From positions 1 through 29,978 of the forward strand of contig JAPPHP010000410.1 of NCBI GenBank assembly GCA_028821035.1: a stretch of 29,978 bases of DNA. The letters run 5' to 3'. The first letter of the stretch is position 1. Each line of letters starts with the position of its first letter. A program made the position numbers and the translations under genes. Shown piece by piece: positions 3-26,105 of the stretch. This DNA is from Gammaproteobacteria bacterium. Its GTDB lineage: Bacteria; Pseudomonadota; Gammaproteobacteria; Pseudomonadales; Azotimanducaceae. The notes under the pieces were generated by a model. It worked only from the letters and a program-made list of their open reading frames with translations, was not told the DNA's origin and searched no databases.

Positions 3-1112
3 ACCGGGACGATCTGGATGGACGATGTCCAGTGTACGGGCAGCGAGTCGCGCCTCGCGGACTGCCCGTTCGGCGGCTGGGGCCTGCACAACTGCCGCCA
101 CTCGGAGGACGCCGGGGTGTCGTGCGGGGCGGCGTCGAGCCTGTCGCTCACCCACGCGACGGTGTCTGGGGTGGAACTCAGCCTTCGCTACGACCGGACC
201 CTGGACGGCGGCTCCGTACCGTCGCCGGGCGACTTCGTGGTCGGGGCGGGTCCGGCGGACGGCGCAGCGGCGATCTCCGTCGAGTCGCTCGCGGTGGTCA
301 ATGGCGAGGCGGTGCTGATGCTGTCGCGGCACGTCGAGGAGTCGGAGAACGTGGCTGTCAGCTACCTGCCCGCGCCGATGCACCCGCTGCAGGACGTCTC
401 GTACAACGCGGCGCCCGCCGCAACCGGCGAACCGGTCCGGTACGCACCTGCGGCGGCGGCTTCCCGCGAGGCCGTCGTCACAGGATTGCCGGCGGAGCCG
501 CCGCCGGCCGCTTTCCTGAGCGGAGAGAAAGTCGAGGTGCTGCGCCTGTCTTCGCGCGGCGTGGCCGACCTCTCCGCGCTCGCCGGGCTGGCGGACCTGG
601 AGGTGCTCGACCTGCGCGACAACGCCGTGGACGACCTCTCGCCCCTCGCCAGTCTCCCGCACCTGCGCGTGCTCGACCTGTCGCGCAATGCGGTCTCCGA
701 CCTGTCGCCACTGGCGGGGATGACCACCCTGCGCCGCCTCGACCTCTCCGACAACCGCGTGGCCGACCTCCGGCCGCTGTCGGAACTGCGCCGCCTCGAG
801 GTCCTGCTGCTCGACGGCAATCGGGTCTCGGACCTGGTGCCGCTGTGGGGCCTGACAGACCTCGCCCACCTCGGCCTATCGGACAACCGCATCGCGGACG
901 CGGCGCTGCTGCGGGACGCGCGGTCGCTGCGGCGGCTGGATCTCGCCGGTAACCGGTTGCGCGACGTCTCGGCGCTCGGCGGTCTGCCGAACCTCGTGTG
1001 GCTGCGCGTCTCCGGGAATCCTGTCGCGGACTTCCCGACCCTCGGACGACTGACCACCGCGCGCTGGCTGATGCTCGAGACGACGGGCGGCGAGGGGTCC
1101 CGCGAACCGTAG
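3..1112 (+). CDS. 5'-truncated large modular surface protein, C-terminal part: end of SRCR domain, SwmB-like repeat, 8 internalin-like LRRs (paralog of 2100-7079)
   Basis: Frame open from window start ([11 protein letters not shown]...[12 protein letters not shown] = SRCR C-terminal half, to about 125). Then [17 protein letters not shown]...VSYLPAP (SwmB-like) and 22-aa LxxLxLxxNxVxDLxPL repeats (about 531-1040). Colinear with 5973-7079. Confidence 0.9.
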
Positions 1113-1125
1113 GCCGCAGGGGCCC

Positions 1126-1479
1126 CTACACGAGTCGATCCAGGCCTGCGAGGACCGCCAGGAAACCCGCGATCACGCCGAGGAAGGCGAGGACCAACGC
1201 CACACCGACGCCCATTACGTTGAACTTGGTGTGCAGCGACTTGATCTCGCCCGTGAGTTCGCCCCTGAGTTCGGCGAACTGCTTGTCGACCTGCGCGAAC
1301 CGTTCGTCGACGTGGGCGAGAATGCGTTCGAACCCGAGATCGAGGTCCTTGCGCACGGCGACGTGGTCGCCAAGCTGTGTCCCGAACGCGCTGGCGACGC
1401 CCTCGGCCTGTTCGCGTTCCATCCCTGACCGCTGTAGCGCATCCGCCACCTGCAGCGTGTCCATCACCGGCTGTGCCAT
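1126..1479 (-). CDS. DUF1640/CCDC90-like small coiled-coil membrane-anchored protein, copy 1 (117 aa)
   Basis: MAQPVMDTLQVADAL..SGMEREQAEGVA head, VAVRKDL neck-like motif, coiled coil, C-terminal hydrophobic helix (VMGVGVALVLAFLGVIAGFLAVLA). Start taken at ATG 1479 because the paralog at 7448 starts at the same Met; the track's 346-aa extension is not conserved. Confidence 0.8.
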   Translation of the reverse strand: MAQPVMDTLQVADALQRSGMEREQAEGVASAFGTQLGDHVAVRKDLDLGFERILAHVDERFAQVDKQFAELRGELTGEIKSLHTKFNVMGVGVALVLAFLGVIAGFLAVLAGLDRLV

Positions 1480-1878
1480 GGGGTTCCGTGTCCTTTCGTC
1501 AGAATAGCCGTTTCCATGCCCCGGAGCATCCGCGCACCGGCATGCCCGCGGGGGCCATAGCGGTGGATTCTCCTGGCGGCGGGGCGCGGAGTCTGTAGGA
1601 CGTCTCGGCGAACTGTTGTGGGACATTCGCTCGACCGGCGGCGGCAACGCGTCCGGCGGACCGTAGGCAGCGGATCCCGGAAACCGCCCCCAATGTTGGG
1701 GACGCGGATCGGGCAGGTCGTTCCTATAGTGCGGAAACGTGCGCGAACCCGGCCGTTTTCCGGGCGCCGCACGTTGGCTGGCATCTGTCGGATGAGGGAG
1801 CGTCCATGCGTGGGGAACCGGAAACGGGGGCAGCGTTCGGCGAGGACCCGGCCGCGTGCCGACGAGGCCAGCCCTTTC

Positions 1879-2058
1879 AACCGGTTGCGCGACGTGTCGG
1901 CGCTCGGCGACCTGCCGCAGCTCATGTGACTGCGTGTCTCCGGGAGTCCCATCGTGGACTTCTCCCCGCTCGGAAGGCTGGCGGCCCTGCCCGGGCGACC
2001 AGGCGTGCCTGCCCGGGTCATCGAGACGACGGACGGCAAGGCGGCCGGCGGGCGGTAG
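1879..2058 (+). pseudogene. Degenerate remnant of the LRR C-terminus of the modular surface-protein family
   Basis: Translates [35 protein letters not shown]...[12 protein letters not shown] versus intact [29 protein letters not shown]...[12 protein letters not shown]. Trp TGG is TGA at 1927-1929, and no homologous upstream sequence is present. Confidence 0.85.
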
Positions 2059-2099
2059 GACGGCGGGAGGCCCCTTTGGTACATCCGCACCGGCACGGA

Positions 2100-5000
2100 A
2101 TGGGCATGCGGGGACCGCTCGCGGCACTGGTGCTCTTGACGGCGGCAATCCACGCAAGCGAGGCATCGCCCCAATCGGTCGATGGCGACGACGCCCCGCC
2201 CAACATCGTCGTCTTCCTCTCCGACGACATGGGTTGGGGACAGCCCGGATTCAATGGCGGCGACGAGGTGGAAACTCCCAACATCGACCGCATCGCCGAG
2301 GAAGGAACCAAGCTCATCCAGTTCTACGTGGCACCAGTATGCACGGCGACGCGGGGGGCGTTGCTGACCGGACGTTACTCCTGGAAGAACGGCACGGGTG
2401 TCCGTTTCAATGCCAGGACGAGCATGGGCATGCGCGTCGACGAGCGCACCATGGCCGAAGCCCTGCGCGACGCCGGCTACGCGACGTGGCTGGTCGGCAA
2501 GTGGCACCTCGGGCAATGGCAGCGGAAACACCTGCCGCTGCAGCGCGGCTTCGACCACCACTACGGCCTGTACGGGGCGGAGATCGACTCGTTCTCGCAT
2601 CATCGGGGCCGGGACCGAGACCTGGCCCTGGACTGGCATCGCAACGGACGCCCGGTGGTCGAGGCGGGCTACTCGACCCTCTTGCTGGCGGAGGAGGCAG
2701 TCCAGCTCATAGACCGTCACGGCCCGAGCGATCCCTTCTTCCTGTTTCTGGCATTCAACGCCGTCCACAACCCGAACGACGCCCCACAGGAGTACATCGA
2801 CCGCTACAGCCACCTCGACAACCCCAGGCAGCGCGCCCAGCTCGCCGTCATGGATGTCGCCATCGGCCAGGTCATGGACGCACTGGAAGCCAAGGGCGTG
2901 CTCGACGACACGCTGGTGATGTTCCTGAACGACAACGGCGGCACGAGCACGGCGGGCTGGAACGCGCCCTACCGCGGCAAGAAGTCGGAGTACCACGAGG
3001 GAGGCATCCGGGTTCCCGCCGTCCTGCGCTGGCCCGGCAGGATCGCGCCGGGGTCGGAGAGCGCCGCGTTGCTGCACGCCGTGGACCTGTTTCCTACCTT
3101 CGCCGGGCTCGCCGGAGCGGACGCCGGCGCCGGCCTGGCGCTTGACGGCGCCGATGCGTGGGCGGCGATCGCCGATGGCGCGGCAAGCCCGCGCGACGAG
3201 GTGGTGCATTCGCTCGACGTGATCCGCAAAGGCGACTGGAAGTTCATCGAGGAGGGGATCGACTACTACGGCTGGACCACGGACGCGCCCGAGCTGTACG
3301 ACATCGCGGCGGATCCTTACGAGCAGACCAACCTGGCTTCGAGCGAGACCGCCAAGGTGGCGGAACTGCGGGCGCGCCTGGCCGATCACGCACAATCCGC
3401 CCGAGACGCGGAGACGTCTGAGAACATTCCGGACTACCCGCCGGTCGTCTATGGGGAGGAGGAGAACACGGCGTTCGCCGACCAGGTGGAGACGGCCGTG
3501 CGCGAGCTCCGGGCTGGCAATCCGGCGCCGTCGCTGCTTCGCCTTGAAGTCACGGGCGCGAGCGTCAAGCTGGTCCACGACGAGACGCTCGACCCCGATT
3601 CAACGCCGCCGACGAGCGCTTTCGCGGTGATGTCGATGCCGGAGTACCGATCCATTCAAGTCGCGAGCGTGGCGGTGAGCGGCAGCGACGTGACGCTGAC
3701 GCTGGCCGAGACGCCAACCGGCCAGACGTTGGGTCTCACCTACGAGGTTCCGGACACCGGCGCGATCCGCGACGGGGACGAACTCGAGGCGGGCGGAAGG
3801 ACCTGGATTGCGGCAACGCTGCTATCGACGGACGCGTCGCTTTCGGCACTGGCTTTGACGGACGGCGATGGCGATGCCGTCTCGCTCAACGAGACCTTCG
3901 CGCCGCTGACGACGTCGTACACGGCGAGCGTTGGGTACGACGTGACTGGACTGACGCTGTCCCCGACCACCGGCGACAGCAACGCCACGGTCACCTACCT
4001 GGCCGCCGACGGGACCACGCTCGCAGATGACGACGCCGACACCACGGCCCTGGACACGACGCTGGCCGTGGGAGCGAACGCGATCCAGGTGAAGGTGACG
4101 GCGGAGGACGGGGTCACTACGCAGACGTACAGCGTAACCGTGCAGCGTGCCGCCGCCTGGGTCTGGTCCACGACCATGACCGTGGGTGGGGACTCTTCCG
4201 GCATGGGATTCTCGAGCCTGCCCAACCCCGACGTGGGCCGGCTTGCGGACGACACGTTCGAGCACGCCGGCCTCACGCGGCGCGTGCAGATCGTCGCTGC
4301 CTCTTCGGCCGGCGTGACGTTTCGGACCCGCAACGGCGGAGACACGTTCGGCGGCCTGGTACTCGAGTGGGCGGGCGAGGTCCTGCCGCTCGACGACGCC
4401 ACCCGCAACTCCAACACCTTCACATGGAACCAAGCGTGGCTGGACACCAACGCGTCCTCCCTCAGCGCGGCCAGCTACGAGACGACGTTGCCGACCGGCG
4501 GATCGGCGACGGTGTGCCTGCGGGTGAGGTCCGCGGCCTGCCCGCAAACGCCGACGTTCGAGGACGGTGCGAGTGCGTCGCGCGGGGTACCGGAAAACGC
4601 CCCGGCGGGCACGGCAGTCGGCGCGGCCGTTGCTGCGACGGGTGCCGGCGGCGAAAGCCTCGCGTACTCGCTTGCGGGCGCGAACGCGGCGGAGTTTGCG
4701 ATCAACGCGTCGACCGGTCAGTTGACGACCTCGGCGGTGCTGGATTACGAGGCGGGGTCCAGCCGGGCGGTCACGGTGAGCGCGGCCAATGCCGACGGCG
4801 GCGCCACGTCGATCCCGGTGACGGTCGTCGTGACGAATGTCGACGAGCCGCCGGATGCTCCGCCAGCGCCAACGGTCTCGGGCGCCTCGAGTACGTCTTT
4901 GTCGGTGTCCTGGAGCGCGCCGGCGAACGCCGGGCGCCCGGCGGTGACCGACTACGACGTTCGCTACGGCACCGGGGGCGGCGCGTTCGTGGACTGGGCG

Positions 5001-7079
5001 CACCAGGGTGCGACCACCTCGGCGACCATCACGGGGCTGTCGGCGGACACGGTTTACCAGGTGCAGGTGCTGGCGAGGAACGCGGAAGGCGCGAGCGGGT
5101 GGTCGGCCACGGGCGAGGGGCGCACGAAGGCGGCGGACGCGATGCTTACCGCTCGGTTCGAGAACGTTCCCGCTATGCATGACGGGTCGAGCGCGTTCAC
5201 GCTGGAGCTTGCGTTCTCCGAGGCGGTGTTCGACGGCACCGAGTCGTTCGACAAGAACCAGGCGATCGGGGACGCCCTCCAGGTGACCGGCGGCACGGTC
5301 AAGGGCAGACGCCGGACCGACCCCGGCGCCTTCGACCGGTGGAGACTGAGGATCGGGCCTTCCGGCCGCGGCGACGTGACGGTCAGGCTCCCGGCGACGA
5401 CCGGCGGCTGCGACGTGGTGGGTGCGATCTGCACGCCGGACGGCCTTCCGTTGTCGGCCCCGGCTGCGGCGACGATCCAGGGTCCACCGGCGGAGGCGCC
5501 AGACGCGCCGTCGGCGCCGGCGCTGACGGCCGGAACGACGTGGCTCGAAGCGTCATGGACGGCGCCGTCCGACAACGGCGCGGCGATCACGGACTACGAC
5601 ATCGGGTACCGCACGACGGGCGGGAACTGGACGGACGCCTCACACGCCGGCACGGCGACCACGAAGCGCATCGAGGGCCTTACGGTCGACACGGACTACG
5701 AGGTGCGGGTGCGGGCGACGAACGCGGAGGGCAGCGGCGACTGGTCTCCGTTTGCATCCGGGCGTACGGACGCGGCGGACAGTGCCAGCGAGGGCGACGT
5801 GCGCCTGGTCAACGGCACTACGGCCCAGGAAGGCCGCGTCGAGATCTACCACAACAGTGAGTGGGGCACGGTGTGCGACGACCGGTTCGCCTCGGACGAG
5901 GCGGCGGTGGTGTGCCGGCAGCTCGGCTACACGGGCGGCGAGGCGCACCGGCAGGCGGCGTTCGGCGAGGGGACGGGAACGATCTGGCTGGACGACGTGC
6001 AGTGCACCGGTAGCGAGTCGCGCCTGGCGGACTGTTCCTCCGTGGGCTGGGGCGTACACAATTGCCGGCACTCGGAGGACGTCGGGGTGTCGTGCGGGGC
6101 GGCGGCGGGCATATCGCTCGCGAGCGCAACCGTGTCGGGGTCGGCGCTGACGCTGCGCTACGACCGGACCCTGGACGGCGGCTCGGTGCCGTCGCCGGGC
6201 GACTTCGTGGTGGCGAAGGGCTCGTCGGCCCCTGCTGTGGCGACTCTCGTCGAGTCGGTCGCCGTGGTCGACGGCGCTGCGGTGCTGACGCTGGCGCGAC
6301 CCGTCGAGCCGTCGGAGAACGTGTCCGTCAGCTACCTGCCCGCGCCAATGCACCCGTTGCAGGACGCCTCGTACAACCCGGCGCCCGCGCTGACCGGCCA
6401 TCCGGTCCGGCACGCACCCGCGACGGCGGCTTCCCACGAGGTCATCAAAGGGTTGCTGGCGGAGCCGCCGCCCGCCGGCTTCGAGAGCGGAGAGAAAGTC
6501 GAGGTACTAAGCCTGTCGTCGCGCGCCCTGGCCGGCCTGTCCCCGCTGGCGGCGCTGGTGGACCTGGAGGTCCTCGACCTGCGCGACAACGCCGTGGACG
6601 ACCTCTCGCCTCTCGCCAGTCTCCCGCACCTGCGCGTACTGGACCTGTCCGGCAACGCGGTCTCAGACCTGTCGCCACTGGCGAGCCTGTCGGAACTGCG
6701 CCGCCTCGACCTGTCGGACAACCGCGTGGCCGACCTCCGGCCGCTGTCGGAACTGCGCCGCCTCGAGGTGCTGCTGCTCCACGGCAATCGGGTCTCGGAC
6801 CTGGTGCCGCTATGGGGTCTGCCGGACCTCGCCCACCTCGGCCTGCGAGACAACCGCATCGCGGACGCGGCGCTGCTGCGGGACGTGCGGTCGCTGCAGC
6901 GGCTGGATCTCGCCGGCAACCGGTTGCGCGACGTCTCGGCGCTCGGCGACCTGCCGCAGCTCGTGTGGCTGCGTGTCTCCGGGAATCCTGTCGCGGACTT
7001 CTCGGCCCCCGGACGGCGGACGGCCGCGCGCTGGCTGATGCTCGAGACGACGGACGGCGAGGGGTCCCGCGAACCGTAG
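2100..7079 (+). CDS. Secreted multidomain arylsulfatase/adhesin (1659 aa): signal peptide, sulfatase, SwmB-like, cadherin-like beta-sandwich, unknown domain, cadherin, FN3, unknown domain, FN3, SRCR, SwmB-like, LRR
   Basis: Start [22 protein letters not shown] (Sec-like; ATG 2100 or 2106). Sulfatase motifs [48 protein letters not shown] (about 2196-3400). DASLSALAL...SYTASV (about 3830-4150). PTFEDG..R.VPEN...G..V (cadherin, about 4550-4850). Two P.AP..P...L.VSW.AP..G..TDYDV.Y FN3 units (about 4850-5130, 5490-5770). SRCR 5790-6095, LRRs about 6498-7005. Confidence 0.92.
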
Positions 7080-7091
7080 GTCGCAGGGCTC

Positions 7092-7448
7092 CTACACGAG
7101 CCGGTCCAGGCCTGCGAGGACGGCCAGAAAACCCGCGATCACGCCCAGGAAAGCGAGGGCCAACGTCACCCCGACGCCCAGTACGTTGAACTTGGTGTGC
7201 AGCGACTTGATCTCGCCCCTGAACTCGGCGAACTGCTTGTCGACTTGCGCGAACTGCTTGTCGACCTGCGCGAACCGTTCGTCGACGTGGGCAAGAATGC
7301 GTTCGAATCCGAGATCGAGGTCCTTACGAACGGCGACGTGGTCGCCAAGCTGTGTCCCGAGCATGCTGGCGACGCCCTCGGCCTGTTCGCGTTCCATCCC
7401 TGACAGCGCATCCGCCACCTGCAGCGTGTCCATCACCGGCTGTGCCAT
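7092..7448 (-). CDS. DUF1640/CCDC90-like small coiled-coil membrane-anchored protein, copy 2 (118 aa)
   Basis: Paralog of 1126-1479. Lacks QR in the head, has an extra heptad (FAQVDKQ twice) and lacks one 4-residue unit near ELRGELTGE. Confidence 0.8.
   Translation of the reverse strand: MAQPVMDTLQVADALSGMEREQAEGVASMLGTQLGDHVAVRKDLDLGFERILAHVDERFAQVDKQFAQVDKQFAEFRGEIKSLHTKFNVLGVGVTLALAFLGVIAGFLAVLAGLDRLV
7228..7290. repeat. 21-bp tandem repeat (about 3 units) encoding coiled-coil heptads
   Basis: gcgaactgcttgtcgacttgc / gcgaactgcttgtcgacctgc / gcgaaccgttcgtcgacgtgg. Copy 1 has one fewer unit. Confidence 0.85.
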
Positions 7449-7779
7449 GGGGTTCCGAGTCCTTTCGTCAGAATAGCCGTTTCCATGCCCCGGAGCATCC
7501 GCGCACCGGCATGCCCGCGGGGGCCACAGCGGTGGATTCTCCTGGCGGCGGGGCGCGGAGTCTGCAGGACGCTTCGCCCAACTACTGTGGGATGTTCGCT
7601 CGACCGAGGGCGATCCTGGGCGGGCACGGTCAAAGACGAGAAGTGCCTGGCGGCAGCGACGCGGCCGGCGGACATCGCCGCGGCGTGACAGAGTGGCTCA
7701 ACCCGCAACGATCGACGAGCCGTTCCTGCACCACGACCGGGGACGCAACCGAGAAGACTTGCAGAAGGGTGAAACCGTC

Positions 7780-12063: not shown

Positions 12064-13284
12064 TCAGCCGACGGCGGCCTCCCGCGCCAGTCGCGCATCC
12101 AGCGACCAGAGCCTGGACGCGAACCCCACCGCGCAGAGCGCGGCCAGCATCGCCGCCGCGGAAACCACGAGGGCGCGTTCCGCCCCCCACCACTCGACCA
12201 TCAGGCCCGACAGCATCGTGCCGAGGGGCGCCGACGACATGAACGAGAAGCCGAAGAACGACATCACCCGCCCGCGCTGGTCCGGCGGGGCCCGCTCCTG
12301 CATGATCATCCGCGCCATGCTCATGCCGAGTCCCGCGCAGGAGCCCCAGGCGCCGATGCACAACACGAACGCCGGAAACTCGAGGCCCGCCCCGGCCAGC
12401 CCGAGCGCAACGGAGCCCACGCCGCTCGCCACCAGCAACAGCCGCCCCGGCCGGCGCACATCGCCGACCAGCAGGAGCACGAACACCGCGGCGATCAGAC
12501 CCACCGCGTTGGCGGTGGAGAGCCAGGCGAGGTCATTGGCGGAGCCGTCGTAGACCTCCCGCACCAGCAGGGGAATGGTCACGACGTAGGGCCCCATGAA
12601 GAAGAGGCCGACGGCGAAGTTCTGCACCACCACCCCGCGCATGGACCGCGAGCCCATCACCGTGCGGGCGCCGTCGGCCACGGAGCGCGCCAGTTCGCCC
12701 ACGGCAGATCCGGACCGCCGGGGAGCAACGATCGGCGGCACGGCCACCCCCGCGAGCGCGACCGCCCCGATGACGAGGACGGCCGCCTGCACGAGCACGA
12801 CCGGACCGGCGCCGACCCGGTCGGCCTGGCCCGCCACCAGGAACGCCACGATCTGGATACCGAACTGCACCAGCGTCACGAGGGCGACCGTCCGCTGGAT
12901 ACGCTGGCCGGCCACCTGGTTCAGCAGGCCGTCGCGCGCCGGCGTCAGGAACGCCTGGGCGCATCCCATCGCCACCGCGAACGCGATCATGAAGCCGAAC
13001 GTCAGGCCGTCCAGGGCCAGCACGACCCACAGCGCCAGCACCGGTAGGGTGGCCGCCACCTGGGACGCCACCGCGACGCGCCGTCCCCCGTAGCGGTCGG
13101 AGATGCTGCCGCCCACCAGCATCAACAGCATCGCGGGCACCAGCATCGCCGTCTGCGCGACGCCCACCATGCGCGGCGACTCGTGGAGCACGATGGTCAC
13201 GAGCCACGCGAACATCACGGTCTGGATGCCGTTGCAGGCGAACCAGCCGCTCGTGCCGACGAGGTAGTAGTGGAGTGGCCGCAA
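12064..13284 (-). CDS. MFS transporter
   Basis: About 12 hydrophobic segments, motif A (GGSISDRYGGRRV), QERAPPDQRGRVMS. TTG start is tentative. Confidence 0.88.
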   Translation of the reverse strand: MRPLHYYLVGTSGWFACNGIQTVMFAWLVTIVLHESPRMVGVAQTAMLVPAMLLMLVGGSISDRYGGRRVAVASQVAATLPVLALWVVLALDGLTFGFMIAFAVAMGCAQAFLTPARDGLLNQVAGQRIQRTVALVTLVQFGIQIVAFLVAGQADRVGAGPVVLVQAAVLVIGAVALAGVAVPPIVAPRRSGSAVGELARSVADGARTVMGSRSMRGVVVQNFAVGLFFMGPYVVTIPLLVREVYDGSANDLAWLSTANAVGLIAAVFVLLLVGDVRRPGRLLLVASGVGSVALGLAGAGLEFPAFVLCIGAWGSCAGLGMSMARMIMQERAPPDQRGRVMSFFGFSFMSSAPLGTMLSGLMVEWWGAERALVVSAAAMLAALCAVGFASRLWSLDARLAREAAVG

Positions 13285-13390
13285 AGCCTCGTGTCCCGGG
13301 TCCGTCCGTCGGGACGAGGCTATCAGCTTGGCGCTTCCCGAGCCCCCTTCGCCGGCGGTCGCGAGGCCCCGCGGCCCACGCCACGAGGTG

Positions 13391-13419
13391 TTGAATCCAC
13401 CCCCGCCCGACCTTAGAAT
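13391..13419 (+). promoter_or_regulatory. Sigma70-type promoter of tRNA-Glu
   Basis: TTGAAT (13391-13396), 17 bp, TAGAAT (13414-13419), then GC-rich discriminator CCGCGCC, 14 bp before the tRNA. Confidence 0.75.
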
Positions 13420-13433
13420 CCGCGCCTTCCCGC

Positions 13434-17122: not shown

Positions 17123-18048
17123 GCCGGCTCCGCCGCCTCGAGCAGCGCCTTGCCCACCCAGTGCCGCGCGAAGTACTGCGCGGTGCGACCGCTGCGCACG
17201 CCGCGCGCCAGGGCCCACTGCAGGGCCGCCTTGCGGACCTCCTCGGTCCACGGGCAGTGCGCCCCGTGCCGTTCCGCGAGGCGCGCCAGCCAGTGGCGGA
17301 CGACGTCGAGGTATTCGTCCTGCCGGAACGGGTAGAAGGACAGCCACAGGCCGAAGCGGTCCGATAGGGAGATCTTCTCTTCCACGGCCTCGCCTTCGTG
17401 GATCTCTCCGCCCCGGTGCCCGGCCTCGAGGTTATCGGCCATGTACTCGGGAATCAGGTGGCGGCGGTTCGACGTCGCGTAGATCACGACGTTCTCGCTG
17501 CGCGCGAACACGGAACCCTCGAGGGCGCTCTTCAACTCCTTGAACGAGGGGTCGTCCGCCTCGAAGGACAGGTCGTCGCAGACGATGACGAAGCGGAACG
17601 GCTCTTCGCGCAGGGACGCGGCGATGTCGGAGATGCCCGCGAGCGCCCGCTTGTCCACCTCGACGAGACGCATCCCGCGTTCGGCGTACCGGTTCAGCAG
17701 CGCGTGGATCAGCGAGGACTTGCCCGTCCCCCGCGCCCCCCACAGCAGCGCGTTGTTCGCCGGGTGCCCCGCCACGAACTGCGCGGTGTTGGTCTCGAGC
17801 TGCTCCTTCTGGCGGTCGATGCTGAGCAGGTCGTCGAGCTCGATGTCGTCGACGTGGGTGAGCGGCACGAAACGACCGCCGAACTCGCGGCGCCACGCCG
17901 CCGCGCGCGTCCGCACCCAGTCGACGCGCCCGGCCGCGGGGAGCAGGTCCGAAACCCGGCGCACCAGCGCGAGGCCGCTTGCGACCAGTTCCTGCAGTCC
18001 GTCCTTCACGTTCCGGGCAACTTCGGGGGCAGCCGAGAGGTGCGGCAT
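17119..18048 (-). CDS. DUF815 family AAA+ ATPase
   Basis: ANNALLWGARGTGKSS (Walker A), IVCDDLSFE (Walker B), YATSNRRHL, EEKISLSDRFGLWLSF, RSGRTA. Start set at MPHLS (ATG 18048). Confidence 0.9.
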   Translation of the reverse strand: MPHLSAAPEVARNVKDGLQELVASGLALVRRVSDLLPAAGRVDWVRTRAAAWRREFGGRFVPLTHVDDIELDDLLSIDRQKEQLETNTAQFVAGHPANNALLWGARGTGKSSLIHALLNRYAERGMRLVEVDKRALAGISDIAASLREEPFRFVIVCDDLSFEADDPSFKELKSALEGSVFARSENVVIYATSNRRHLIPEYMADNLEAGHRGGEIHEGEAVEEKISLSDRFGLWLSFYPFRQDEYLDVVRHWLARLAERHGAHCPWTEEVRKAALQWALARGVRSGRTAQYFARHWVGKALLEAAEPA

Positions 18049-23867: not shown

Positions 23868-26105
23868 TCAGAACGAGAAGTCAAGCGTCACGCCATAGGT
23901 CCTGGGCTGCTGGTACTGCGCCCTGTTCGTGCCAAAGGGAAGAAACGCGGCACCGAACGCCCGGTACACCTCGCTGTCATCGTCCGTCAGATTCTTCGCC
24001 CACAGCGAGATGCCCCAACTATCGGACGCTGGCCGATAGCCTACGCGAGCTCCAAGCAAGGCCTGGGACGGCAGGACATCGTCGGGATGGTTGTGGAAGG
24101 AGCCGTCCGAGAAACGCTCGTCCACGTAGCTCAGATCAAGCCGGGAGGTCAGCGTACCGCCCATCAGCGCTCTCGTGTGCTGAGCGGATACGTTAACGGT
24201 CCACTCTGGCGCGAGAGGCAGGGTCTTGCCTCCGGCATCAAAGAACCCACCCCTGCGCTGGTCTTCGACATCCGACAGCTTGTCATAGACCGTATCCATG
24301 TAGCCGATCCCGGCGGTGAATCGAAGCCCTTCCGTTGGCAGCGCGACCAGCTCGAGTTCGAAACCTTCGCCTTCGGCCGTCCCGGCGTTGGACAGGAATC
24401 GGAGCGGGATACCACCGGGTCCGCAGTTCACGCAACCCAGGCGAACCTGCAGATCATCGTAGTCCATGCGGAACAGTGCGAAGTTCAGGACGAGCCGGTT
24501 GTCCAGCCAGCTCGACTTCATGCCGAGTTCATAGCTCGTGACTTCCTCGTGGTCGGTGATCAGGTTGTTTGCCGCGAAGTCCGCGATGGGGTCAGGGGTG
24601 TTGTTGAACGCACCGGACTTCACGCCCGTTCCGATACTGCCATAGATCATGACATCGTCCGTGATCTGATAACGCATACCCGCGGTCCAGGTCCATTCCT
24701 CCAGTACGACATCGACGGGAGCGTCAGTTGTCTCGGTAAGGGCAGGATTACCCAAGATGATGCACGTGATGGGGTTGGCGCATGAGGAAGGGTGCGTCTG
24801 CTGTTCCTTTATCTCATCGGTGTAGCGCAAACCACCGAAAAGCACCATCCGGTCGCTCAGGTCAAGATTGGCGTGGAGGAAACCGGCCCAGCTTCTACGG
24901 TCCAGCGTATTGCCGCCCCGCGCGATACTCGAATTGCGTACCGGCGGGAAGGGGAACCCGCTGCCGAGAAAGATCACGTCATTGACCGCGCCCTCGTCAT
25001 CGTCGTAGTAGAAACCCGCGACAAAGTCATAGCTGCGGTCTGTCGGCGACGCGATCCGCAGTTCCTGGCTGAACTGTTCGGTGCCAACGAACGATGTGAT
25101 ACCGACGACCGGGTTGGGCGTGGCCTCGACGTCGGCACCGAAGGTCAGCTCGTCGCCCAGTAAAGCCGTTGTGGACGTAAGCGTATAGCCATTCTCGAAC
25201 TCATGCTCGATCGTCACCGATGCGTTGGACAACTCTATCTTCGATGTGTTCTCCGTATCGTTCGTCGTGGTGTAGGCCCGATCATCCGCCGCGGGTCCAT
25301 CGACATGCTCGAAAAAGTAGTCGTCGGAATCCGAATCGTAGGCGCTCACGGAGAGGTCGATCGTGGTTTGAGCGCTCGGCGTGTATCGCACCTGAAAGCG
25401 GGCGCTGGTCTTCTCCTTGCCACCGAGCTTGTCGCTACCCGTCGTCACGTTGTCCGCATATCCGTCGATCTCGTAGCTTTCCGCAAACAGCTTCACCGCG
25501 AGAGTGTTTTCAAGAAGGGGAATGTTCACGCTGCCGCGGGCATGGACCAGGTTTCGGTTGCCGGCGTCGACGGACAAGTCTCCGAAAAAGTCCTCCGTGG
25601 TCGGCTTCTTGCTCGTGATGTTGATTGCGCCGCTGATCGTGTTGCGACCGAACAGCGTGCCCTGCGGACCCCGCAGGACCTCCACCCGCTCTATGTCACC
25701 CATGTTCGGGTTGGCGTTGAACTGACGTGAATGGAACACACCATCCACGTACACGCCTACGCTCGAATCGAAACCCAAGGCCGACGGTTCCGTACGGGTG
25801 TATATGCCGCGAATCGAGATGAACGACAGTCCCTGGTTGACCGACTCGGCGAATACGAAGTTGGGAACCTGACTTGACAGATCCTTCAGATCCAGCGAGC
25901 CGGTGGCAGCGATGTCTTCGGCCGTCACCGCGGAAATCGAGATAGGTACGTCCTGCAACGACTCGGCGCGCCGGGTCGCGGTGACGACAATCTCCTCAAT
26001 CGCCAGCGCGGACGCACCTTCCTGGGCGAACGAAGTGACGGGCAGCGCCAGAGAGACTGCGAACAGGGCAACGCCAGCCCCACGGAAAAATCGAGGCCGG
26101 TACAT
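23868..26105 (-). CDS. TonB-dependent receptor
   Basis: Signal peptide, IEEIVVTATRRAESLQDVPISISA, GVYVDGV, ERVEVLRGPQGTLFGRNTISGAINI plug, C-terminal QQPRTYGVTLDFSF. Lower GC than flanks. Confidence 0.95.
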   Translation of the reverse strand: MYRPRFFRGAGVALFAVSLALPVTSFAQEGASALAIEEIVVTATRRAESLQDVPISISAVTAEDIAATGSLDLKDLSSQVPNFVFAESVNQGLSFISIRGIYTRTEPSALGFDSSVGVYVDGVFHSRQFNANPNMGDIERVEVLRGPQGTLFGRNTISGAINITSKKPTTEDFFGDLSVDAGNRNLVHARGSVNIPLLENTLAVKLFAESYEIDGYADNVTTGSDKLGGKEKTSARFQVRYTPSAQTTIDLSVSAYDSDSDDYFFEHVDGPAADDRAYTTTNDTENTSKIELSNASVTIEHEFENGYTLTSTTALLGDELTFGADVEATPNPVVGITSFVGTEQFSQELRIASPTDRSYDFVAGFYYDDDEGAVNDVIFLGSGFPFPPVRNSSIARGGNTLDRRSWAGFLHANLDLSDRMVLFGGLRYTDEIKEQQTHPSSCANPITCIILGNPALTETTDAPVDVVLEEWTWTAGMRYQITDDVMIYGSIGTGVKSGAFNNTPDPIADFAANNLITDHEEVTSYELGMKSSWLDNRLVLNFALFRMDYDDLQVRLGCVNCGPGGIPLRFLSNAGTAEGEGFELELVALPTEGLRFTAGIGYMDTVYDKLSDVEDQRRGGFFDAGGKTLPLAPEWTVNVSAQHTRALMGGTLTSRLDLSYVDERFSDGSFHNHPDDVLPSQALLGARVGYRPASDSWGISLWAKNLTDDDSEVYRAFGAAFLPFGTNRAQYQQPRTYGVTLDFSF

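Follow-up and report, generated by a model that had tools for sequence, protein, structure and literature searches.

The window analysed here, that is, the whole stretch of 29,978 nucleotides, is an entire contig (JAPPHP010000410.1) of a 2.97-Mb, 65%-complete gammaproteobacterial metagenome-assembled genome (MAG; GCA_028821035.1). [quoted passage not shown] Pfam analysis predicted the order sulfatase, SWM, Cadherin-like, Cadherin, fn3, an unannotated segment, fn3, SRCR, SWM and LRRs. The features of this gene and of a second gene truncated by the contig edge are as follows:

2100..7079, + strand: host gene of the SRCR domain, about 1,660 amino acids, probable start ATG 2100 or 2106
2199..3383, + strand: formylglycine-type sulfatase head, PF00884 with an SGSH_C-like C-terminal part, 174.6 bits
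3879..5765, + strand: beta-sandwich stalk (Pfam)
3879-4148, + strand: Cadherin-like domain (Pfam)
4587-4832, + strand: Cadherin domain (Pfam)
4857-5111, + strand: fn3 domain (Pfam), followed by the unannotated segment
about 5523-5765, + strand: fn3 domain directly before the SRCR domain (Pfam)
5790..6095, + strand: complete group A SRCR domain (translation, PF00530, phmmer, AlphaFold/Foldseek, site residues, dN/dS)
6117..6335, + strand: SWM_repeat (SwmB-like) directly after the SRCR domain, PF13753, 62.4 bits
6546..6977, + strand: C-terminal leucine-rich repeats, LRR_4/LRR_8 (Pfam), residues 1581-1724 of the open reading frame
3..1112, + strand: truncated 3' part of a paralogous gene at the contig edge, with the last 41 amino acids of an SRCR domain (3-125), SWM and LRR

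The region 5790-6095 (+) translates into 102 amino acids with cysteines at residues 29, 42, 72, 82, 92 and 102. The positions of the group B cysteines C1 and C4 are occupied by Gln13 and Tyr47, which corresponds to the group A pattern as defined in PMC10855680. In an alignment of 125 bacterial domains the six cysteines were invariant and no cysteine occurred at the C1 or C4 position. The Pfam profile PF00530 matched residues 1335-1430 of the open reading frame (ORF) over profile positions 1-99 of 100 with 103.4 bits (cut-off 26.1 bits; E 8.9e-30), and a six-frame search scored the domain at 109.9 bits. Searching the sequences of the Protein Data Bank (PDB) with phmmer gave per-domain E-values down to 1e-29 (CD163) and whole-chain matches to neurotrypsin, SCARA5, Mac-2BP (M2BP), SR-AI, MARCO, LOXL2 and DMBT1, a similarity which, judged by these scores, is far above chance. 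The exact match of the translation, the PF00530 score and the cysteine pattern bear out the textbook six-cysteine group A SRCR domain that a sequence-only reading of this DNA had recognised in a bacterial gene. The second copy which it had placed at 3-125 is real but partial, consisting of 41 amino acids that match profile positions 60-99 (E 7e-11).

The structure of the domain was modelled with AlphaFold (AF2). An alignment of 16 sequences from the genus gave a mean predicted local distance difference test score (pLDDT) of 47; an alignment of 125 bacterial sequences was used instead and gave a model with pLDDT 98.2 and a predicted template modelling (TM) score of 0.91. Comparison of the predicted model with the PDB by Foldseek retrieved SCARA5 (7c00; TM 0.95, root-mean-square deviation (rmsd) 0.7 Å) and M2BP (1by2; TM 0.98, rmsd 0.6 Å), and all of the top 50 matches were SRCR domains. 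The window domain is thus predicted to have the SRCR fold, a curved beta-sheet cradling one alpha-helix, in which the disulfides would pair as C2-C7, C3-C8 and C5-C6. The animal group A domains of SCARA5, SR-AI/SCARA1, MARCO, M2BP, LOXL2 and neurotrypsin share with it the same Pfam domain from end to end, the six-cysteine pattern, 51-54% of the residues and, with rmsd of 0.6-1.1 Å and TM of 0.90-0.98, the predicted fold; their acidic cation-binding cluster is also retained. In contrast to these animal proteins, the window SRCR is bacterial and present in a single copy, with fn3, SWM and LRR modules on its flanks and a sulfatase in the same chain; a collagenous or coiled-coil stalk, a transmembrane anchor and a protease domain are all absent from its protein.

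The conservation of the ligand-binding surface was compared with that of a characterised domain. In SALSA/DMBT1, the SRCR8 domain binds ligands through two exposed cation sites, site 2 (D1019, D1020 and E1086) and site 3 (D1020, D1058, D1059 and N1081); the exchange D1019A or D1020A abolishes the binding of hydroxyapatite, heparin and a streptococcal LRR protein, and the same surface is used by MARCO, CD6 and CD163 (PMC7043408). The putative counterparts in the window SRCR are D30, D31 and E96 for site 2 and D31, D68, D69 and N91 for site 3. The SALSA motifs CDD, LDDV, HNC and SED are all present, and their spacing (22 and 5 residues) matches apart from a one-residue loop difference before LDD. 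These six putative site residues were invariant in all 22 close relatives that constitute the window clade; in 103 further bacterial SRCR domains their conservation was 64-96%. Pairwise dN/dS values against 14 relatives ranged from 0.09 to 0.53, and the domain is under purifying selection. Because the site residues are retained and invariant and the dN/dS values are low, we conclude that the domain is probably maintained for an animal-type binding function, towards a ligand that can be proposed by analogy. Of the mimicry or binding suggested by the sequence-only reading, the binding part was in this way strengthened. With DMBT1 (SALSA/gp340), a group B protein which binds polyanions and a bacterial LRR protein via this site, the window domain shares about 50-52% of the residues, the site 2 and site 3 residues with their spacing, and the predicted fold (TM 0.94-0.97); it differs in lacking the C1-C4 disulfide and in standing alone, whereas DMBT1 carries 13-14 tandem SRCRs with SID linkers.

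The head of the protein aligns with PF00884 over the full length of the profile (positions 1-301 of 301) and carries the formylglycine (FGly) motif C-T-A-T-R within an 11-residue stretch (window 2340-2375), in which alanine replaces the usual proline. The Ala variant of this motif is accepted among the substrates of anSME. With its full-length domain and a C/S-x-P/A-x-R motif, the head can be classed by sequence as a type I formylglycine-dependent sulfatase. The genome is rich in such genes, as 29 PF00884 matches and 4-5 matches to the formylglycine-generating enzyme (FGE) domain were found in the 65%-complete MAG.

Comparison with related genomes revealed that the gene belongs to a modular family of the genus, a lineage of Ca. 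Azotimanducaceae (Pseudomonadales). The fn3-SRCR-(SWM)-LRR tail recurs in five genus-mates, where it is preceded by other heads and stalks, with three cadherin-like domains, SWM and 4-7 fn3 domains. Sulfatase-headed giants with the SRCR domain occur in G000, G002 and G012, and sulfatase-headed giants that lack it are a second paralogue in G012 and the proteins of G009 and G003. Since the sulfatase giants occur with and without SRCR and the heads vary, the constant part of the family is the C-terminal SWM-LRR tail, and the SRCR domain is an optional module just before it. Where present, its position is fixed, always directly before the SWM-LRR tail. In the window itself a direct repeat of 1.6 kb (5-1637 versus 5974-7606, 87.7% DNA identity) spans the C-terminal part of the SRCR domain, the SWM, the LRR tail and about 530 bp downstream with a small convergent ORF, which implies that tandem paralogous giant genes share one tail cassette. 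Among the loci examined, the fn3-SRCR-SWM-LRR tail and the sulfatase head were confined to this gammaproteobacterial gene family, three of whose loci were binned to other phyla. The closest named copies of the domain, with 74-92% identity, come from MAGs whose names begin with RHO1, SB06xx, IRC, COS and CO36. These codes look like sponge samples (Rhopaloeides, Ircinia and Coscinoderma), although their definition was not seen in PMC8163846, which lists these three genera among its seven sponge hosts. A further fragment, P0274, is 82% identical.

Two side observations concern this family. In the two sulfatase giants with SRCR that were examined, the FGly motif reads C-x-A-x-R (CTATR, CSATR), and in three SRCR-less ones it has the canonical form C-x-P-x-R (CAPTR, CSPTR). 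The same fn3-SRCR-SWM-LRR gene, with 74-82% DNA identity over the whole gene, was found in L022, L032 and L036, which are binned as Acidimicrobiales, Rhodospirillaceae and Caldilineaceae; two of these contigs are only about 5 kb long, and mis-binning is more likely than a transfer across phyla.

The distribution of the domain was assessed at several taxonomic levels. SRCR domains were found in 10 of the 21 species of the genus, in none of 15 other genera of the family and in one of 24 other families of the order. In an even draw of 300 Gammaproteobacteria, three genomes carried the domain (about 1%), one of them being the contamination-like genome G211 (see below), whereas in the myxococcal order that holds a Sandaracinaceae match 20 of 121 genomes did so, often with tandem triplets. 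The earlier statement that SRCR domains are uncommon in bacteria therefore holds for the class at large and fails for the genus and for this myxobacterial order. The counts (10/21 species of the genus versus 0/15 other genera of the family and 3/300 of the class) may hint at an enrichment in sponge-associated bacteria, but the genomes counted carry no habitat label and the domain is also common in non-symbiotic Myxococcota. When one genome per GTDB species was scanned with the single motif WGTVCDD[RYS] as seed, which biases the sample to conservative domains, 106 SRCR loci emerged in Gammaproteobacteria, Myxococcota (with many loci, some of them in MAGs from sludge and lakes), Bradymonadia, Bdellovibrionales, Binatia, Nitrospinota, Acidobacteria, Chloroflexota, Planctomycetota and Alphaproteobacteria, at least 10 phyla overall. 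About 95% of the bacterial domains have six cysteines. As the domain is found in Myxococcota, Bradymonadia and at least 10 phyla, it is a recurrent extracellular module in bacteria, in symbionts and others alike. The other bacterial SRCR proteins, among them lipoprotein-like proteins of Myxococcota and proteins of Binatia and Bdellovibrionales, contain the same six-cysteine group A domain with conserved site residues and are likewise exported and multidomain; their domains are 45-69% identical to that of the window, and partner domains and copy numbers differ. In myxobacteria the partners are the cysteine-rich repeats DUF4215, MopE-like and DUF7107.

Single proteins of this wider set stand out by their composition. 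A Bradymonadia MAG from Lake Mendota (L071:724-5526) encodes a protein of 1,601 amino acids in which two SRCRs are combined with MopE-like repeats and a uromodulin-type D8C domain; D8C and SRCR were otherwise seen together in fish DMBT1-like proteins. In the Bdellovibrionales MAGs L043 and L046, reduced genomes with chromosomes of 1.4-1.5 Mb and 40-43% GC encode proteins of about 2,000 amino acids with 4-5 SRCRs; their identity to the window domain reaches 69%, although the GC contents differ by 30 points.

The sequence-only reading had further proposed an old host-to-symbiont transfer of the domain. About 37,800 cluster representatives in the protein databases matched the window SRCR with E <1e-3, most of them animal multi-SRCR proteins. 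The best per-domain identities were 70% for sea urchin, 69% for a Bdellovibrionales MAG with 40% GC, 66% for scallop, 60% each for Myxococcota, Binatia and vertebrates, and 57% each for Cnidaria and sponges. No eukaryote-like sequence more than about 70% identical to the domain was found among 5.8 billion proteins. The GC content at third codon positions (GC3) was 0.92 in the SRCR domain, 0.88 in the host gene and 0.84-0.94 in most other sampled genes of the window, in agreement with the earlier remark that the domain is encoded in GC-rich codons like the rest of the gene. Because nothing eukaryotic exceeds about 70% identity and the composition is native, these comparisons indicate that there was no recent transfer.

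For the phylogenetic analysis a tree was computed with IQ-TREE (LG+C20+F+G4; 140 rows and 103 columns) from animal and bacterial domains only, without algae, choanoflagellates and apicomplexans. The window SRCR was placed in a gammaproteobacterial clade of seven rows (support 98/98), and the backbone of the tree was a polytomy. The sponge domains grouped with one another (92/92) next to vertebrate group B and apart from the window clade. Seven cysteines, as in 'group C' of PMC10855680, were present in each of the 12 sponge domains sampled (from Amphimedon and Ephydatia, two species of which neither belongs to a host order). The label bacteria or animal changed four times on the tree (bootstrap range 4-6). 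The outcome which, according to the earlier reading, would refute the transfer is thus seen by half: the bacterial SRCRs are broad and partly free-living, but they interleave with those of animals rather than forming a clade outside the eukaryotes. In a quick tree with 19 short proteins added, which include exon-like ORFs from large ENA contigs (63-67% identity), the window clade stood beside group A domains of sea urchin and scallop with zero support; it lay inside a set that contained all animal rows but one and excluded most Myxococcota (SH-like approximate likelihood ratio test 91). A constraint that joined the window clade with Porifera cost 31.7 log-likelihood units and was not rejected by the approximately unbiased test (p-AU 0.238).

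According to one explanation, the domain was captured long ago from a sponge host and now mimics the SRCR receptors of the host as a decoy or cloak against recognition or phagocytosis. Sponges have an expanded set of SRCR receptors, which are implicated in the recognition of microbes (PMC10855680, PMC4850255), single eukaryote-like proteins can alter phagocytosis by sponges (PMC13747020), and only one genus of the family has the domain, its named members being sponge-MAG lineages. The placement of the window clade in the animal-like part of the tree, near the sea urchin and scallop group A domains, and the outcome of the constrained test would also fit. The sponge domains themselves, however, differ in cysteine number, reach at most 57% identity and form a clade of their own, although this sampling is limited to two species, and uniting them with the window clade is costly in likelihood. 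Moreover, the best animal matches are no better than that of a 40%-GC Bdellovibrionales MAG, the domain occurs in sludge and lake-water Myxococcota, in Bradymonadia and elsewhere in bacteria, and the fully native codon usage bears no trace of an origin outside the lineage. A capture from the sponge host with such a decoy function is therefore improbable in our view. Positive support for a sponge donor is absent, theft specifically from a sponge appears rather unlikely from these comparisons, and the earlier host-to-symbiont proposal is left unproven. The data rather point to an old, fully ameliorated bacterial lineage of the domain, common to the sponge-MAG Gammaproteobacteria, whose source may have been eukaryotic or bacterial; about 100 alignment columns are too few to tell in which direction such an ancient exchange between bacteria and animals went.

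A trivial explanation would be an artefact, in which a host exon was mis-assembled or mis-binned into a bacterial contig, and contamination of this type seems to be real elsewhere. In G211 (Gammaproteobacteria), contig C4 contains four SRCRs (67-360, 4429-4722, 13137-13430 and 17499-17792), each in an open frame of 114 amino acids and about 4 kb apart, which look like exons of a eukaryotic multi-SRCR gene and thus like host contamination of the MAG. Similarly, ENA contigs of 1.5-2.2 Mb (P0355, P0383, P0405, P0407 and P0379) contain many ORFs of 100-170 amino acids with one six-cysteine SRCR each, flanked by junk translation; these ORFs, whose SRCRs are 63-67% identical to that of the window, probably represent exons of eukaryotic group A multi-SRCR genes. 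The window domain, in contrast, lies in frame between a bacterial fn3 and SWM inside an ORF of 1,757 amino acids and has native GC3, and its orthologues are located on chromosomes of about 4.5 Mb, each a single contig. Its neighbours in the window are ordinary bacterial genes, namely those for CNNM/CorC, MFS, DUF481, a sodium:solute symporter, GAPDH, a TonB receptor and a 2-oxoacid:ferredoxin oxidoreductase. Contamination by a host exon was rejected on these grounds; its probability is negligible.

On balance we favour, with moderate confidence, the explanation that the window encodes a functional group A SRCR domain which serves as an exchangeable module of lineage-specific giant modular surface or secreted proteins and binds polyanions in a Ca2+-dependent manner. 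The domain would be one swappable part of a giant, Sec-exported family in a sponge-associated genus, built from a head that varies (here a formylglycine sulfatase, in other members cadherin-like domains), a stalk of SWM, cadherin and fn3 domains and a constant SWM-LRR tail, in which some members carry the SRCR between the last fn3 and the tail. By analogy with SALSA, the acidic surface cluster (D30, D31 and E96; D68, D69 and N91) may hold Ca2+ and thereby bind polyanionic ligands. In the sponge mesohyl the leading candidates would be sulfated host-matrix glycans; once bound by the SRCR, these could be attacked by the sulfatase to which it is fused. Polyanionic surfaces of other cells would be an alternative ligand. 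We infer secretion, Ca2+ binding, the ligand and the cooperation with the sulfatase from the features described above.

The same binding surface could instead be directed at other microbes, that is, at lipopolysaccharide, teichoic acids or other envelope polyanions, and serve aggregation, biofilm formation or prey capture in the sponge microbiome. The richest holders of SRCRs found are predatory or social bacteria, namely Myxococcota (20/121, with tandem triple SRCRs), Bradymonadia and Bdellovibrionales, in which one frame of 2,006 amino acids holds five SRCRs; the ligand-site residues are conserved in all these bacteria, and bacterial surfaces are among the canonical SRCR ligands (PMC7043408). 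No sign of a predator was seen in the 30-kb window, the genome having been searched for SRCR, sulfatase and FGE domains only, and the fusion of a sulfatase with cadherin, fn3 and LRR modules is typical of sponge-symbiont proteins directed at the host matrix (PMC8163846). Binding of other microbes is thus a possibility which we regard as unlikely. Less credit still is due to a function as a rigid, disulfide-stabilised spacer of the stalk without a ligand of its own. The domain does stand among other beta-sandwich spacer domains and is present in some and absent from other similar giants, but the six exposed site residues, which the fold does not need, are invariant in 22/22 relatives and strongly conserved over 125 bacterial domains, and the position directly before the SWM-LRR tail is fixed. 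Since a mere spacer would not be expected to keep such residues, this role is quite improbable.

Several observations weigh against Ca2+-dependent polyanion binding by a secreted sulfatase-SRCR protein, the explanation that we prefer. Site 1 of SALSA, a buried structural cation site, has no counterpart, as D1023 aligns with Ala34, and the SALSA numbering was mapped by motif and spacing, not by a printed structural alignment. A dedicated role of the SRCR domain in targeting the sulfatase is weak, given the three SRCR-less sulfatase paralogues or orthologues, and the domain is found behind non-enzymatic heads too. The N-terminus (22 residues) resembles a signal peptide as judged by eye only; no sorting signal was recognised at the C-terminus of the protein. 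The habitats of the MAGs were read from record titles only, and no experiments on any bacterial SRCR were found in the literature searched.

Eukaryote-like proteins (ELPs) are known from sponge symbionts, with ankyrin, LRR, TPR, WD40, cadherin and fn3 as classes (PMC8163846; Reynolds & Thomas 2016, cited in PMC12625764); HEAT is also listed in surveys of ELPs. The window protein resembles them in its sponge-MAG lineage, its secreted appearance, its cadherin, fn3 and LRR adhesion modules and the signs of exchange between symbiont lineages. It differs from them in that SRCR is not among the ELP classes in the literature searched and that it is joined here to a catalytic sulfatase head. Internalin-type LRR adhesins, in which an N-terminal cap and LRRs precede an Ig-like inter-repeat domain and a cell-wall anchor, are a poor comparison, as the LRRs of the window protein are C-terminal and without an internalin-specific Pfam match, and the organism is Gram-negative. 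No description of bacterial or symbiont-encoded SRCR domains was found in the full-text literature searched, which is no proof of absence, and SRCR was treated there as a host receptor only.

The sponge-holobiont literature thus regards SRCR receptors purely as tools of the host for microbe recognition. Here, the microbes themselves carry intact SRCRs with conserved ligand-site residues, and one symbiont genus links them to sulfatases and LRR tails, which makes it possible to ask concretely how extracellular symbionts attach to the sulfated matrix of the sponge and use it as food, or how they escape recognition. SRCR is not restricted to animals but is a building block in several bacterial phyla, including predatory lineages, and its spread in bacteria bears on the origin of a core domain of animal innate immunity. 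The main value of the analysis lies in the architecture and distribution data; the novelty is moderate and consists in a new architecture within a domain family and an ELP theme that were both known. The group A SRCR domain of this giant bacterial sulfatase/adhesin is genuine and intact and apparently functional, with Ca2+-dependent polyanion binding as the most likely mechanism by analogy with SALSA and host sulfated glycans as the leading candidate ligand. A more far-reaching interpretation, which we put forward only tentatively and consider doubtful, is that SRCRs constitute an unrecognised class of eukaryote-like modules in sponge symbionts, that SRCR and LRR tail form a conserved cassette for docking to the host matrix or a receptor, and that this cassette delivers various heads, including a glycan-desulfating sulfatase, to a defined polyanionic target. 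Because bacterial and animal group A SRCRs interleave, the fold might also have been exchanged repeatedly between bacteria and early animals or be bacterial in origin.

Some minor features of the window complete the description. The longer ORF of 1,757 amino acids, which begins at 1806, runs through a decayed copy of the LRR tail upstream of the probable start of the gene. This third copy of the LRR end (1878-2062 versus 6917-7083, 75.7% identity over 185 nt) lies directly upstream of the start of the sulfatase gene. Two small ORFs, 1126-2166 (-) and 7092-7448 (-), converge on the two LRR tails; a Pfam search gave only a sub-threshold CCDC90-like match (formerly DUF1640; E 9e-4) for the first and no match for the second. 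Finally, the gene of the TonB-dependent receptor at 23868-26105 (-) has a GC content of 0.60 and a GC3 of 0.75, compared with 0.67-0.72 and 0.84-0.94 on the contig, and may be a foreign insertion.

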